From the NCBI GenBank assembly GCA_964357605.1, contig CAYHLX010000001.1:5159-69158 (forward strand): 64,000 nucleotides of DNA, read 5' to 3'. A program made the translations under genes and the position numbers. Source of the stretch: an uncultured Candidatus Saccharibacteria bacterium (GTDB lineage Bacteria > Patescibacteriota > Minisyncoccia > Phycocordibacterales > PALSA-1337). Below are positions 47,515-54,427 of the stretch, piece by piece (the first letter of the stretch is position 1; every line of letters begins with the position of its first letter). The notes below the pieces were generated by a model. It worked only from the letters and a program-made list of their open reading frames with translations. It did not search any database and was not told the origin of the DNA.

Positions 47515-50751
<3,237 letters not shown>

Positions 50752-50802
50752 AGGGAAAGTATAGCAAAAAATGGCTCAAGAATGTGGTCAAAATTTTGCT
50801 TG

Positions 50803-50838
50803 ACTTTTGGTTATATTATGTTGTATAATTGAAGTGGT
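50803..50838 (+). promoter_or_regulatory. Candidate sigma70-type promoter of the DGR target gene (TTGACT - 18 nt - TATAAT), followed by about a 140-nt leader
   Basis: ttgacttttggttatattatgttgtataattg, read directly. The long untranslated leader before the GTG 50975 / ATG 50984 start has no recognised motif. Confidence 0.4.
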
Positions 50839-50974
50839 TTTAAAGAGCACTTTTACAAGAGAAGAGACGATCCGCTACAGCGTTGAGAGGCTTAAAACAG
50901 ATAAAACTAGGCAATTCAAAGCTGTGGCGGACCATGTCGGTACGTCATACGGCACATAACAAACACGATGAAAG

Positions 50975-51736
50975 GTGATAACGATGAACACATCGATTAC
51001 ATCGAACCAGACAGAACAAGTAGCAACCTTCACTGCAGATGCCGCCCGCTCCGGCGCCCGAAACGTCATGGAACGAGTCGCGAAGATTGAAGGTGTCTCC
51101 CGAGACAGCCTTCAGGCAAGAGTCATCGAAAAAGGCAACGAGCTGACCAAGTTCGTAAGTCGGGAAGTTGAAGCTCTTCTGGAGAGCAAGCTTCTCGCAA
51201 TGCTGATGATCATGCTCGACCACCTCAAGGTGATCATGGTAGGATCAGTGAAAATTGCGACTATGCCCCGCATGAAAGTTGTTGATTGCCTCAAGCAAGA
51301 CGGCGTGATCATCGGCTGGCGTGATGACGATCTGGATGGCTGGCTCTCGGAATATGTTTCAGCGATGCCTACAGGGACAATCAACTGCATGGAACTTACG
51401 AAGCCCGAAGGCACAACTTTCCGCCAGATGGCTGAAGCGGCCCTAGGCATGGCCGGGGCTAACGACGCAGAGCTGAAAAAAGCTCTTCGTGAACGTGGAA
51501 TGACCTTCCACCTTGAACAAGTTCGGGATCTCATCACGAGAACCGAAGCTAAAGAGGAGACAGGCTTCCATAAGGACGGCAAAGCCAACCTCCTTTTTAT
51601 CGAGGATGAGAATGGGGAAGTCTTTGGGCTCCGCGTCCGTCGGGATGACTGCTGGGGGGTGCGCGTCGACTCCTTTGGCAACGACCGCGAGTGGCTTCAG
51701 GGCCGTCGTTTCTTCTCTCGCAACATGCCTGCGTAA
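50975..51736 (+). CDS. DGR target (variable) protein; C-terminal about 36 aa encoded by the VR
   Basis: The VR occupies the last about 106 nt before the stop. The VR-encoded tail 'VFGLRVRRDDCWGVRVDSFGNDREWLQGRRFFSRN' corresponds to the TR-encoded 'IFGLNVNRNDYWKVNVNSFDNDNEWNQGNRFFSRN' (AAC/Asn-rich, as is usual for DGR templates). GC content is visibly higher than in flanking genes. No signal peptide is evident. An alternative start at ATG 50984 has a GGTG Shine-Dalgarno. Confidence 0.75.
   Translation: MITMNTSITSNQTEQVATFTADAARSGARNVMERVAKIEGVSRDSLQARVIEKGNELTKFVSREVEALLESKLLAMLMIMLDHLKVIMVGSVKIATMPRMKVVDCLKQDGVIIGWRDDDLDGWLSEYVSAMPTGTINCMELTKPEGTTFRQMAEAALGMAGANDAELKKALRERGMTFHLEQVRDLITRTEAKEETGFHKDGKANLLFIEDENGEVFGLRVRRDDCWGVRVDSFGNDREWLQGRRFFSRNMPA
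51619..51724 (+). repeat. DGR variable region (VR)
   Basis: Manual alignment to 52014..52119 gives 85/106 identical. Every one of the 21 differences is VR G/C/T opposite a TR A (g/a, cg/aa, cg/aa, g/a, g/a, g/a, gg/aa, cg/aa, g/a, g/a, cg/aa, ct/aa, cg/aa, c/a). Confidence 0.85.
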
Positions 51737-51742
51737 GCAGGC
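51727..51742 (+). promoter_or_regulatory. GC-rich hairpin immediately 3' of VR (gcctgc GTAA gcaggc), with the TAA stop codon inside the tetraloop
   Basis: Read directly. A 6-bp perfect stem with a 4-nt loop in this position matches the hairpin/cruciform element known to flank VR in DGRs and to promote target recognition. Confidence 0.5.
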
Positions 51743-51779
51743 AAGGTTTAGATCCTTGGGTCTTTGGACACTTGGATTC

Positions 51780-51812
51780 AAAGGGGCGTTCGCAAGAATG
51801 CCCCTTTCTGCT
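51780..51812 (+). terminator. Rho-independent terminator of the target gene
   Basis: aaggggcgttcgcaagaatgcccctttctgc: stem aggggc/gcccct followed by a T-rich tract. Confidence 0.5.
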
Positions 51813-52013
51813 ATACTCAAAAAGGCTTTGTTGACATTTCCGTTCACTAAATAGTGGATTGAGGTGACAAAGTCTTTTTCAATCGTTTTATTTTGTTGAA
51901 AAATAAAAAAAGAAAAAAGTTGGTACATGAAACTGGTGAGTGATAGGACTCAAAATAATATACAATCTGGAGACAACCTCAACAGACAGTGACATGGAAG
52001 GTTTTGTGTACAT

Positions 52014-52119
52014 AATCTTTGGGCTCAACGTCAATCGGAATGACTACTGGAAGGTGAACGTCAACTCCTTTGACAACGACAACGAGTGGAATCAGGGCAA
52101 TCGTTTCTTCTCTCGAAAC
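52014..52119 (+). repeat. DGR template region (TR)
   Basis: Adenine-rich cognate of the VR (see the VR feature). It lies in non-coding context between the target gene and the avd/RT genes. Confidence 0.85.
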
Positions 52120-52128
52120 TGTTTCTTT

Positions 52129-52148
52129 CTCCCGCATCAGAGCGGGAG
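52129..52148 (+). promoter_or_regulatory. Hairpin 10 nt downstream of TR (ctcccgc atcaga gcgggag) followed by ttttctttc
   Basis: Perfect 7-bp stem, read directly. It is a plus-strand terminator-like or structured 'spacer' element of the TR RNA, and it overlaps the 3' end of the antisense avd ORF. Confidence 0.4.
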
Positions 52149-52436
52149 TTTTCTTTCTAGAGGAAGGTTTTGTAGTTCCTTATGCCATCCACCGATCATT
52201 TTTCCTGGTTCAATTAAAGTCTTTGAAAGAGCTATGTATCTTTTGTCATCAAGTACTTTTATTTCCCAAGCTACATTTAGGAAAATTTTTAAACAATCTA
52301 GTTTGGTTACTGCTTTCTTTAAATGCGGCATTTTTTCCGTTCTGGGGCTCAAGGCACTCAGACTCAGATTTTCTATAAGTTCTATGAAAAGTGAGTCTAT
52401 TTTTCCGGCAATGGTGTGTCTTTTGGATTTTGGCAT
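52137..52436 (-). CDS. avd: Avd-like accessory variability determinant (four-helix-bundle protein); true start probably upstream at 52524 but out of frame because of a G10 tract
   Basis: The C-terminal 'KLDCLKIFLNVAWEIKVLDDKRYIALSKTLIEPGKMIGGWHKEL' matches the conserved ...L...lgyl.eeey..l...ieeigkmLngli of Avd / 23S-IVS four-helix-bundle proteins. 'MPKSKRHTIAGKIDSLFIELIENL' aligns to the FPKEEKYgLtsQlRRAavSIpaNIAEG helix. The in-frame upstream sequence 'AHSLPVLLKLISSYKLWQQYFDS' supplies helix 1 but has no start codon. An ATG-ATG (52524/52521) sits in the -1 frame just across a G10 run. Confidence 0.6.
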   Translation of the reverse strand: MPKSKRHTIAGKIDSLFIELIENLSLSALSPRTEKMPHLKKAVTKLDCLKIFLNVAWEIKVLDDKRYIALSKTLIEPGKMIGGWHKELQNLPLERKLPL

Positions 52437-52505
52437 GCTATCAAAATACTGTTGCCAAAGTTTATAACTTGAGATTAACTTTAATAAAACTGGTAAGCTG
52501 TGTGC

Positions 52506-52515
52506 GGGGGGGGGG
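52506..52515. repeat. G10 (C10 on the avd strand) homopolymer in the 31-nt divergent intergenic/5' region between avd and the RT
   Basis: Read directly: tgtgc gggggggggg tgaca. This is an exceptional run in a roughly 40% GC genome. With 9 G the avd ORF would start MMSPPPAHSLPV... and be 128 aa. Confidence 0.9.
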
Positions 52516-52555
52516 TGACATCATAGGTTTTAGGTTATCATAATAAGGTTTATAT

Positions 52556-53548
52556 ATGAAGACATATGTTGATATTATTTCTACAAACAATTTACTCAAA
52601 GTTTGGAAAGAATTTTTACGTGGAAAGAAAAAACGTAAGGATGTGAATGTATTTTCACTGCATCTTATGGACAATATCTTTAGGCTTCATAAAGATATGA
52701 AAAATAAAGAATATAAACATGATGAATATGAAGCATTTGGTATTTCTGATCCAAAGCCTCGCAAGATTCACAAGGCTACAGTCAGAGATCGCCTAGTTCA
52801 CCATGTCTTGTATGAAGCCTTATCCCCACAGTTCAATCAAAGATTTATTTCTGATTCATATTCTTGTCGTCTCAATAAAGGGATGCACCGCGCCCTCGCA
52901 AGATTTAAAATATATTCAGGAAAGGTGAGTAAAAACAATACCAAAACATGCTGGATTTTGAAATGTGATATTAGAAAATTCTTTGCTTCTATTGATCAAT
53001 CTATTCTCACATCCATTCTTGAAAAATATATTTCTGATAAAGACATTCTTTGGCTGCTGTCTAATGTCATACATAGTTTCCATAGTACTGCTCCAGGAAA
53101 AGGACTACCTCTGGGTAATCTGACCTCACAATTGTTGGTCAATATTTACATGAACGAATTTGATCAATTTGTAAAACATAAACTCAAAATAAAATGCTAT
53201 ATTCGTTATGCCGATGATTTTGTTGTTTTTGATTCTTGCAAAAGTAATTTGGAAAATCTTATAATTATTTTCAGGGAATTTCTAAAAGAAAATCTAAAGC
53301 TTGACCTGCATCCCAATAAAGTTTTCATAAAAACTCTAGCATCAGGTGTTGATTTTCTCGGCTGGGTTCATTTTCCTAACCACCGAGTGTTGCGTACAGT
53401 TACAAAAAAGAGAATGATGAAGAAAATAAAATCAGGTTTTCGGCCAGAAGTCATAGCTTCGTATATTGGTATGCTTGAACATGGAGATGCTTATACCTTG
53501 CGAAAGAATATAGAAAATCTTCCAGAAATCGAGATAAAGCCGAAATAA
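52556..53548 (+). CDS. DGR-type reverse transcriptase
   Basis: 'GLPLGNLTSQLLVNIYMNEFD' is the DGR-specific motif 4 (I/LGxxxSQ). 'IRYADDFVVF' is YxDD motif 5. 'ISDPKPRKIHKATVRDRLVHHVLYEAL' covers motifs 1-2. The compact 330-aa size and the absence of maturase/endonuclease or intron RNA features fit a DGR RT. Confidence 0.85.
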   Translation: MKTYVDIISTNNLLKVWKEFLRGKKKRKDVNVFSLHLMDNIFRLHKDMKNKEYKHDEYEAFGISDPKPRKIHKATVRDRLVHHVLYEALSPQFNQRFISDSYSCRLNKGMHRALARFKIYSGKVSKNNTKTCWILKCDIRKFFASIDQSILTSILEKYISDKDILWLLSNVIHSFHSTAPGKGLPLGNLTSQLLVNIYMNEFDQFVKHKLKIKCYIRYADDFVVFDSCKSNLENLIIIFREFLKENLKLDLHPNKVFIKTLASGVDFLGWVHFPNHRVLRTVTKKRMMKKIKSGFRPEVIASYIGMLEHGDAYTLRKNIENLPEIEIKPK

Positions 53549-53602
53549 AGTTTTTGTGAAATTGGCTATTGCTTTTAACGGGGTAGTTGGGATAATTGGG
53601 GG

Positions 53603-54427
53603 ATGGGAAATGAAAGTATCAAACTAGCACTCTTTCAGAAGAAGGGGATAAGAAGGACAATTCATGAGAATGAGTGGTATTTTGTTATTGCGGATGTTAT
53701 TGAGGTTCTTACAGATTCCATCAATCCAAAACAATACTTAAAAAATCTTCTGAACAGAGATGAGGAACTTGTAAAAGGGTGGGTTCAAATTGAACACCCC
53801 CTTTCAATAGATACTGCAGGAGGGCCACAGAAAATGCTTTGTGCTAACACCGAAGGTATTTTTCGCATAGTCCAATCAATTCCTTCTCCCAAAGCAGAAC
53901 CATTTAAAAGATGGTTGGCAAAAGTAGGTTATGAAAGAATACAGGAAATAGAAAATCCAGAGCTAGCTACTAAACGAACGAGAATATTATATAAATTGAA
54001 AGGATATCCTGATGATTGGATTGAAAAAAGAATGCGAGGTATTGCTATCAGAGAAGAATTAACTGATGAATGGAAAAATAGAGGGGCGAGGGAGAAAAAA
54101 GATTATGAAATACTGACGACAGAAATTTCAAAAGCGACTTTTGGTGTTACTCCAGAAGAATATAAAAAGTTAAAGGGTTTAGAAAGAGAAAATCTAAGGG
54201 ATCATATGAATGATTTTGAACTTATCTTTACTATGCTTGGAGAACGTTCAACGACCGAAATTCACAGAACCGAAAATTCAAAAGGAGTATCAAAACTAAA
54301 ATCAGATGCAAAAGTTGGTGGTGAAATAGCGGGAGACGCTAGAAAGAGACTTGAAAAGAGGCTCAAGAAATCTCTGGTCTCAGAAAAGAATTTCAAAGAT
54401 CTTAATGAAAAAAGACTTAAAAAATAA
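53603..54427 (+). CDS. DinD-like DNA-damage-inducible protein (Bro-N domain + DinD C-terminal region)
   Basis: N-terminal 'IRRTIHENEWYFVIADVIEVL...NPKQYLKNL' follows the Bro-N pattern (..ir....ge.wFva.Dva..L). The central/C-terminal 'EELTDEWKNRGA...FGVTPEEYKKLKGLERENLRDHMNDFELIFTMLGERSTTEI' resembles E. coli DinD. It overlaps the rnhB start by 23 nt. Confidence 0.6.
   Translation: MGNESIKLALFQKKGIRRTIHENEWYFVIADVIEVLTDSINPKQYLKNLLNRDEELVKGWVQIEHPLSIDTAGGPQKMLCANTEGIFRIVQSIPSPKAEPFKRWLAKVGYERIQEIENPELATKRTRILYKLKGYPDDWIEKRMRGIAIREELTDEWKNRGAREKKDYEILTTEISKATFGVTPEEYKKLKGLERENLRDHMNDFELIFTMLGERSTTEIHRTENSKGVSKLKSDAKVGGEIAGDARKRLEKRLKKSLVSEKNFKDLNEKRLKK

Follow-up and report, generated by a model that had tools for sequence, protein, structure and literature searches.

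A diversity-generating retroelement in a Candidatus Saccharibacteria contig: adenine-specific repeats, a covarying template RNA and a G/C run at avd

Could a gene of an uncultured Candidatus Saccharibacteria bacterium be rewritten at its 3' end by a retroelement that the cell itself encodes, and is that retroelement intact? This question is raised by positions 50800-53548 of a 64,000-nucleotide (nt) stretch of contig CAYHLX010000001.1 (assembly GCA_964357605.1), hereafter the window, where an earlier reading made from the sequence alone (the sequence-only reading) had proposed a complete diversity-generating retroelement (DGR). To our knowledge, prokaryotes have no natural system of targeted protein hypermutation other than DGRs, which are now being engineered for use in directed evolution. 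Bacteria of the candidate phyla radiation (CPR) carry them at unusually high frequency, and we know of no CPR DGR that has been studied biochemically. Here, we conclude with high confidence that the region is a chromosomal DGR of the Patescibacteria (CPR) reverse transcriptase (RT) clade, which diversifies one gene by mutagenic retrohoming. The DGR interpretation is supported by an adenine-only pair of variable repeat (VR) and template repeat (TR), by the RT, by a homologue of Avd and by the turnover of the VR relative to a diverged locus, L081.

The repeat pair, the reverse transcriptase and their relatives

The VR, at 51620-51724 on the plus strand, pairs without gaps with a non-coding TR at 52015-52119 on the same strand, at an offset of 395 nt. 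When the pairwise alignment is tabulated by TR base, as had been proposed, every mismatch falls on a TR adenine: in 20 of 20 cases a TR adenine stands opposite a VR base other than A (12 G, 7 C and 1 T), and over the span 51619-51724 against 52014-52119 no position with another TR base differs. The sequence-only reading had counted 21 mismatches; the restriction to TR adenines stands, while the count becomes 20 in the ungapped alignment. BLAST and a repeat finder delimit the pair as 51621-51724 and 52016-52119 with 19 of 19 mismatches at adenines, one fewer because the first mismatch, at 51620, sits on the border of the homology. The 106-nt span holds 31 TR adenines, 11 of them unchanged, and the 105-nt repeat 52015-52119 holds 30; the probability that all 20 mismatches fall on these 30 adenines by chance is 1.9e-14. 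The 64-kb window contains a single copy of the VR/TR repeat, with no second copy found.

The VR covers codons 213-247 of the 250-codon target gene, that is, the last 35 sense codons before the ending NMPA-stop. Read in the VR frame, the TR adenines form 10 AAY codons, plus AAG, GAC, TAC and others, and nearly all of them occupy codon positions 1-2. The replacement of template Asn (AAC) codons described earlier fits these AAY codons, yet it is only part of the pattern, which also includes Tyr to Cys, Lys to Gly, Asp to Gly and Ile to Val. The sequence of the final 35 target codons is supplied by the non-coding TR, with randomisation limited to template adenines.

The RT gene (52556-53548, plus strand) starts 436 nt downstream of the TR and encodes a compact protein of 330 amino acids (aa) with an RVT_1 domain (5e-23), the motif LGNLTSQ (53111-53131, aa 185-191) and YADD (53207-53218, aa 218). 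The distance of about 440 nt and the YADD motif given earlier are confirmed, and the first motif is to be corrected from IGNLTSQ. Among solved structures, the best match of the RT is that of the Bordetella phage DGR (8ub7; E 1.2e-36), against about 5e-17 for group II intron RTs, in agreement with the earlier assignment to the DGR rather than to the group II or retron type. Then, could the RT nevertheless belong to a group II intron or a retron, with the repeat an ordinary diverged duplication? The top NCBIfam model for the RT is indeed a group II RT/maturase (TIGR04416, 146 bits), in a collection without a DGR RT model; however, this score lies far under the cutoff of 300, no maturase or endonuclease domain is present within the 330 aa, and the match to the Bordetella phage RT is 20 orders of magnitude better than those to intron RTs. 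Retron RT models reach only 60 bits against a cutoff of 235. No intron ribozyme and no msr/msd or other retron RNA was matched by Rfam, which was run on 50600-53700 under permissive filters and on the whole window at gathering thresholds, and returned one tRNA only. Mismatches confined to adenines, at a chance probability of about 2e-14, likewise speak against an ordinary duplication, and we give this explanation a negligible probability.

Membership of the element in the CPR DGR clade is seen in the RT, which clusters by identity with Patescibacteria loci, and in the gene order shared with them. There are hundreds of RT relatives in species-representative genomes, and the best 80 were used here. 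The RT is 59-67% identical to the RTs of these 80 loci, nearly all annotated as Patescibacteria/CPR metagenome-assembled genomes and a few labelled otherwise or unclassified, and at most about 38% identical to phage DGR RTs, with matches that include DGR-bearing Bordetella, Bacteroides and Faecalibacterium phages. The order target/VR (+), about 400 nt, TR (+), avd (-) and RT (+) is found in every related locus with enough flank (about 60). Therefore, the layout that had been called unusual is, in order and orientation, the norm of the clade.

This layout is probably the published B3 architecture, to which 90% of the CPR DGRs in the literature belong (Wu et al., 2018; PMC5758913). Roux et al. 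(2021; PMC8144416) describe a clade 2 that is confined to Patescibacteria and encoded by cells, with targets that have no recognisable domain. Compared with these CPR DGRs (PMC5758913; PMC8144416), the element has the same order of target/VR, TR, reversed avd and RT, is likewise cell-encoded and from groundwater, has a target without a recognisable domain as reported for CPR targets, and shows no essential difference. The locus is a further member of a well-documented CPR DGR clade, so the DGR itself is not novel. The flanking genes are housekeeping genes (DnaE, RNase HII, NusB/NUDIX and RNase III), which points to a chromosomal element.

Metagenome look-ups provided four useful contigs. Two of them, L083 and L084, are near-identical assemblies from the 0.1 um fraction of Hainich groundwater well H41; L081, from SRR12404957, is a relative about 90% identical to the window, and L082 is more distant than L081. 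Between the window and L081 the synonymous divergence (dS) is about 0.85. The two VRs show 23 differences, 20 of which lie at TR-adenine sites shared by both. The remaining three are the exact sites at which the two TRs differ (C/T, G/A and T/C), and each VR bears the base of its own TR. TR and VR co-evolve in the diverged relative, and TR-to-VR copying continued after the lineages split, since the TR substitutions of L081 have been copied into its cognate VR. Judged from these sequences, the DGR is very probably active.

Purifying selection acts on the RT, on avd and on every non-coding element. Against L081, the ratio of non-synonymous to synonymous divergence (dN/dS) is 0.08 for the RT, 0.04 for the body of avd and 0.05 for the avd stretch 52437-52505. 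The non-coding elements are 91-100% identical to L081, above the 68-75% of third codon positions: 97% for the TR, 39/39 for the TR 3' flank plus its hairpin, 98% from the G run to the RT start, 95% for the hairpins after the VR (51725-51782) and 91% for the 5' domain of the TR RNA. The VR is the least conserved segment of its gene, with 78% identity against 89% in the rest. Elsewhere in the clade, one locus (L016) has one TR (2074-2174) with two VRs (1624-1724 and 632-731), and another (L049) has two TR/VR pairs, 1842-1941/1380-1476 and 5791-5933/5009-5151.

A template RNA with a covarying fold

In what kind of RNA is the TR carried? In an alignment of 60 loci, about 110 nt upstream of the TR are conserved, and they make up a structured 5' domain of the TR RNA (51900-52014, plus strand), which consists of a leader (51909-51920), the stems P1 (51922-51933 with 52001-52011), P2 (51938-51951) and P3 (51965-51987), and conserved junctions. 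RNAalifold folds it into a three-way junction, with the 12-bp long-range stem P1, whose 3' strand abuts the TR, and the hairpins P2 and P3; compensatory changes occur in 19 of the 21 pairs. The partners are paired in 96.5% of the alignment cells against 35-54% with slid partners, 365 cells are compensatory, and none of 500 shuffles scored as high. A covariance model of the domain matches 76 of 85 sources, once per locus and in each case on the plus strand, that of the RT; 16 of the 76 lie outside the training alignment, two of these 16 being near-identical assemblies of the window population. The single match in the window is at 51900-52021 (88.8 bits), and no Rfam family matches the domain.

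The leader pairs with a strand in the 3' flank (ACTGTTTCTTT, 52118-52128, plus strand), which clamps the 5' domain and the TR in a closed loop. The two strands covary among loci, for example, ATGAAGA/TCTTCAT, ACGAAGA/TCTTCGT and ATAAAGA/TCTTTAT, with AAAGAAA/TTTCTTT in the window. Cognate duplexes have a mean energy of -8.0 kcal/mol against -5.8 kcal/mol for non-cognate ones, and none of 5000 permutations was as low. In an alignment anchored only on invariant residues, leader and flank reach 75.5% pairing, against 44-53% for slid partners, and 64 cells are compensatory. In this register, the near-invariant A (51918 in the window) pairs in nearly all loci with the U directly after the conserved TR end CG(C/A)AAC.

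Right after the TR, a terminator scan finds a GC-rich hairpin with a T-run (52129-52158, plus strand), the putative intrinsic terminator of the TR RNA and a candidate Avd-binding stem-loop. Such a hairpin with T-run lies 10-25 nt past the TR in nearly all of the 60 loci, with differing stem sequences, and the C-terminal codons of Avd overlap it on the opposite strand. The TR is embedded in a conserved, covarying RNA, with a 5' three-way junction, a clamp helix around the TR and a 3' terminator hairpin.

Two other candidates in this region were rejected. The promoter-like GTGACA-16-CATAAT that ends at the TR start lies inside the RNA domain (J3/1 and the P1 3' strand) and is not kept in relatives, and the 175-aa open reading frame (ORF) 51940-52467 (plus strand), which runs through the TR and antisense to avd, was treated as spurious. 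As a separate observation, many loci (L016, L053, L065 and L071, for example) have ACTTCA a few nt upstream of the leader (AAAAATGAAGA), which the window lacks; there ACTTCA could pair with the leader in place of the post-TR strand (TCTTCATTT), a possible folding switch.

How does this RNA compare with that of the Bordetella phage, whose ribonucleoprotein has been described by cryo-EM? There, the primer strand in the spacer (Sp) pairs with the TR 3' end and primes from A56, two nt further on comes the strand that forms the 'cPRT Stop' duplex with the stretch immediately 5' of the TR, RT-binding elements follow, and an Avd-binding stem-loop lies just downstream of the TR (Handa et al., 10.1101/2023.10.23.563531). 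The window element shares with the phage BPP-1 DGR (mtd-VR, avd, TR, Sp, brt; PDB 8ub7 series) the A-specific mutagenesis, the RT family and the Avd partner. In both, a stem-loop comes right after the TR, and the TR is looped out by two adjacent duplexes, one at its 3' end (primer/template) and one abutting its 5' end (stop), the gap between the primer and stop strands being 2 nt in the phage and 3 nt in the window. In contrast to BPP-1, avd is inverted in the window and lies between TR and RT; the long Sp spacer downstream of the TR is absent, the RNA appearing to end about 40 nt past the TR; and the structured RNA, with the would-be primer and stop strands and additional stem-loops, is placed 5' of the TR. 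The two-duplex topology is similar with its strand 5' of the TR, and therefore a circular permutation is proposed. The survey of Handa et al. took 40 nt upstream of the TR only (10.1101/2023.10.23.563531), and would thus miss the leader and most of the CPR 5' domain.

According to the proposed mechanism, the TR RNA would be a separate transcript of about 260 nt, which ends at the terminator hairpin and is not co-transcribed with the RT, and its architecture would be that of the Bordetella phage DGR RNA in circularly permuted form. The leader would serve as primer strand, with A 51918 as the counterpart of the priming adenosine Sp A56, and cDNA synthesis would start at the last TR nucleotide, 52119. 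P1, abutting the TR 5' end, would take the role of the 'cPRT Stop' duplex, and the post-TR hairpin that of the Avd grapple. The A-mutagenised cDNA would then replace the VR, and the variable protein would be a divergent binder with a C-type-lectin (CLec) fold on a helical stalk.

The avd gene and its G/C homopolymer

Between TR and RT, an Avd-like ORF had been noted in the sequence-only reading; an Avd homologue does occur there, although on the minus strand. The body of avd (52137-52505) is open from a run of ten Cs (C10) to the stop at 52139-52137, and its only in-frame ATG is at 52436-52434. The listed ORF 52137-52436 matches Pfam bAvd at 4e-10, from profile position 21, and the Avd corrected to nine Cs (C9) matches NCBIfam DivGenRetAVD at 8.6e-17, with profile positions 4-104 against residues 13-115.

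The run itself, G10 on the plus strand and C10 on the minus strand (52506-52515), occupies the divergent junction of avd and RT. It is the only G/C run of at least 8 nt in the 64 kb, where 0.02 runs of at least 10 nt are expected from composition, and it measures 10 nt in each of four independent assemblies, which represent two diverged lineages. Of 77 related loci across the clade, 72 have a G/C run of 6-12 nt at the avd start, at a distance of 7-70 nt from the start of the RT on the other strand; its modal length is 10 (10 in 28 loci, 9 in 15, 11 in 12 and 8 in 11). Close relatives with identical flanks have runs of 11, 10, 10 and 8. A promoter-like site, GTGACA-18-CATAAT (52515-52544), extends from the last base of G10 to 11 nt before the RT ATG; it is kept in L081 and not evident in more distant loci.

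By three-frame translation, an ATG ATG TCA directly upstream of C10 (52516-52524, minus strand) is one nt out of frame with the avd body. Nine Cs would yield MMSPPPAHSLPVLLKLISSYKLWQQYFDSMPKSK..., and C9 or C12 would join MMSPPP to AHSLPVLLK. Against L081, the stretch 52437-52505 evolves as coding in the avd frame, with 4 synonymous and 1 non-synonymous changes; its low dN/dS therefore indicates that this stretch upstream of the ATG is translated in the avd frame. An ATG no more than 15 nt upstream of the run occurs in 23 loci: in 13 it calls for the same shift (one C fewer, or a +1 ribosomal shift), in 7 it is already in frame and in 3 it is in the third frame. Two other ideas were discarded. 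Against PPP as a conserved protein motif, the codons are uniformly CCC in AT-rich genomes and the lengths vary by non-multiples of 3; and where, as in many loci, an ATG lies about 35 nt upstream of the C-run, it is probably a conserved RT His codon seen in reverse complement rather than a start of avd. In L083, near its position 2320 (window 52519-52522), an indel and a substitution occur in the ATGATG; they do not restore the frame and, at a coverage of 2x, may be sequencing errors.

Several points weigh against our reading of the locus. At the ends of VR and TR, no distinct pair of initiation of mutagenic homing sites (IMH/IMH*) or mismatch block is recognisable; both repeats end in a conserved A-poor 3' segment, and different hairpins follow them. 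Within the population, the variability of the VR amounts to one difference between the window and L083, at a TR-adenine site covered only 2x. Covariation and analogy underlie the proposed priming nucleotide, transcript ends and permutation model, and folding of the single sequence also allows the leader to pair with the U-run that follows the hairpin. As for avd, the window contains no canonical in-frame start that would give full-length Avd, and no Shine-Dalgarno sequence precedes the out-of-frame ATGs. Since the upstream stretch is coding and a canonical start is absent, full-length Avd in the window needs a frame change at the run. The element had been called complete and self-contained, which holds for the presence of all the core parts, whereas full-length Avd is conditional on that frame change.

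Then, is this a decaying or silenced DGR, whose avd has been frameshifted by C10, which has no functional Avd and whose VR pattern is a relic of past activity? Indeed, the conserved Avd N-terminus is preceded by out-of-frame ATGs only, and the product of the first in-frame ATG lacks about the first 17 positions of the Avd profile. However, the same G10 and the same frame offset are found in a lineage at a dS of about 0.85, which has its own VR and its own copies of TR substitutions. In addition, the avd body and the upstream stretch have a dN/dS of 0.04-0.05, and a run of 6-12 nt is kept in 72 of 77 loci. Decay is disfavoured because an intact homopolymer and purifying selection would not persist side by side in a pseudogene, and we consider it quite improbable.

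A stronger competitor to a role in Avd translation is that the run serves the RT gene, as its initially transcribed sequence or 5' untranslated region (UTR), for example through reiterative transcription, or in promoter spacing, and that Avd starts unconventionally. In about half of the loci, a TGG(T/C)AAAA(T/G)-like extended -10 motif lies 5-7 nt upstream of the run on the plus strand, and a Shine-Dalgarno sequence and the RT start come 14-40 nt after the run. Consistent with such a role, the tract lengths of close relatives vary by non-multiples of 3 (11/10/10/8), and many loci have no convincing in-frame ATG upstream of the run. However, the -10-like motif falls on conserved Leu-Pro codons of Avd and could be due to coding, no ATG, GTG or TTG lies between the run and the conserved LPVLLK in the window, and the proximal ATGs are non-randomly phased, 13 of 23 sharing the same one-nt shift. 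This explanation appears somewhat unlikely, though it deserves to be kept in mind.

Poly-G/C tracts that mediate phase variation are familiar from the contingency loci of Neisseria, Campylobacter and Haemophilus, and sites of programmed +1 frameshift or transcriptional slippage offer a related comparison. With these, the clade of the window shares a G/C run of 8-11 nt at the very 5' end of a coding region, an AT-rich genome and lengths that differ by non-multiples of 3. It differs from them in that the length of 10 is kept across a dS of about 0.85 and the tract is also 5' of the divergent RT gene; within-population length polymorphism, moreover, is not shown for the window tract. Phase variation, programmed frameshift or transcriptional slippage, and a role as RT 5' UTR or promoter are thus candidate roles of C10, among which we make no choice. 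In the proposed mechanism, full-length Avd would be made only by a frame change at C10, by slippage in tract length at the DNA or RNA level or by a +1 ribosomal shift, and the supply of Avd, hence mutagenesis, would probably be gated at the run. Taken as a whole, the model that the CPR DGR RNA is a circular permutation of the phage RNA, cis-primed from A 51918 and carrying an Avd-binding terminator hairpin, and that a hypermutable G/C run gates Avd (by phase variation or +1 shift) and possibly the RT too, is put forward tentatively.

If the model is true, the mutator itself would be stochastically switched or throttled by a homopolymer. The position of the run at avd suggests on/off or throttle control, which, if real, would account for the way in which the cost of a mutator is kept within limits by the cell. 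The locus and its about 80 relatives also offer a compact RNA of about 260 nt with a covariation-supported fold, so that the generality of phage cis-priming could be tested in a differently wired element. A literature search found no paper that links DGRs with a G/C homopolymer, phase variation or frameshift, and neither the 5' RNA domain nor the homopolymer is mentioned in the accounts of CPR DGRs consulted (PMC5758913; PMC8144416). This suggests that the covarying RNA architecture and the conserved homopolymer are clade-wide features undescribed as far as checked.

The target gene and minor features of the locus

The target ORF spans 50975/50984-51736 on the plus strand, with the likely start at ATG 50984, after AAAGGTGA. 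Upstream of it, a consensus scan finds a sigma-70-like promoter (TTGACT-18-TATAAT, 50800-50829, plus strand; 11/12), which is kept in L081. The 5' UTR of about 150 nt contains a long hairpin predicted by folding (50871-50931, plus strand), the stem of which is kept in L081 by GC/GU swaps; the fold of 50836-50990 has an energy of -39.9 kcal/mol (z -4.16), and the hairpin has no Rfam match.

What kind of protein is diversified? The predicted product of 250 aa consists of an N-terminal two-helix hairpin and a divergent CLec-like C-terminal domain, and it shows no evident signal peptide. It has no meaningful match in Pfam or NCBIfam, and neither do 119 of its relatives in Pfam; the statement that it lacks a recognisable N-terminal domain thus agrees with the Pfam result, and a helical hairpin is predicted there. 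A word-indexed search found 10 homologues and a profile search 629 cluster representatives, mostly of 170-260 aa, which align over the C-terminal approximately 165 residues. A confident AlphaFold2 model built on this alignment (predicted local distance difference test score, pLDDT, 89.6 for the whole protein and 96.4 for residues 78-250) has two long helices at the N-terminus, after which comes an alpha/beta domain with the VR on its last strands. Foldseek of this model against the PDB gave no significant match. On the basis of the model, the C-terminal domain is read as a very divergent CLec-like fold, its membership not being proven. CLec-like folds are expected in unannotated CPR targets by Roux et al. 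(PMC8144416), and the DGR variable proteins with a C-type-lectin fold to which it may be compared are Mtd, TvpA (2y3c) and the archaeal AvpA. If so, the unannotated target family, with about 630 cluster representatives, would add a very divergent lectin-like scaffold that tolerates massive variation.

Downstream of the VR, small structures are crowded together. The first, a hairpin 1 nt past the VR (51726-51743, plus strand), has a 7-bp stem and a GNRA loop (TGCCTGC-GTAA-GCAGGCA), with the loop GCAA in L081. It is followed by small hairpins or repeats with YTTG loops (GATCCTTGGGTCTTTGGACACTTGGATTC, 51751-51779, plus strand), picked out by motif enrichment across the 60 loci: motifs of the CTTGG/CTTTG/CTTAG type are about 7 times commoner in the 90 nt after the VR (2.6 against 0.37 per 90 nt). 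In the same 90 nt, the 5-mers CCCTT, CTTAG and CTTGG are enriched 10-17 times, with CTTG/TTTG loops. A terminator-like hairpin of the target gene (GGGGCG..TGCCCC followed by TTTCT, 51783-51811, plus strand) can be read from the sequence, and a promoter-like site with a TG-extended -10 (TTCGCA-17-TATACT) overlaps it. In the Bordetella phage, a hairpin/cruciform downstream of the VR is described (PMC3240598, as summarised in PMC5758913), and according to Wu et al. an inverted repeat follows the VR in only 34% of DGRs (PMC5758913). By analogy with the phage hairpin/cruciform, the post-VR hairpins plausibly mark the recipient site. In L081 (1040-1055, window 51734-51750), the change of the post-VR loop from GTAA to GCAA accompanies that of the target stop from TAA to CAA, and the protein therefore reads through the post-VR hairpin and ends in ...NMPAQAGKV.

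Directly after the RT and before RNase HII, a protein of 274 aa (53603-54427) has a BRO-N domain (1.7e-13), which is phage-associated; it probably lies outside the DGR because it is present in L084 and absent from L082. The GC content of the target gene (50984-51736) is about 54%, against about 33% for RT and avd (52137-53548) and 41.6% for the window. In 54 of 56 loci, GC content is higher over the last 600 nt of the target than in the flanking genome (means 55% against 43%), and in 50 of 56 the RT lies below its flanks. Depletion of A does not explain the GC-richness of the target, because the AT skew is positive there.

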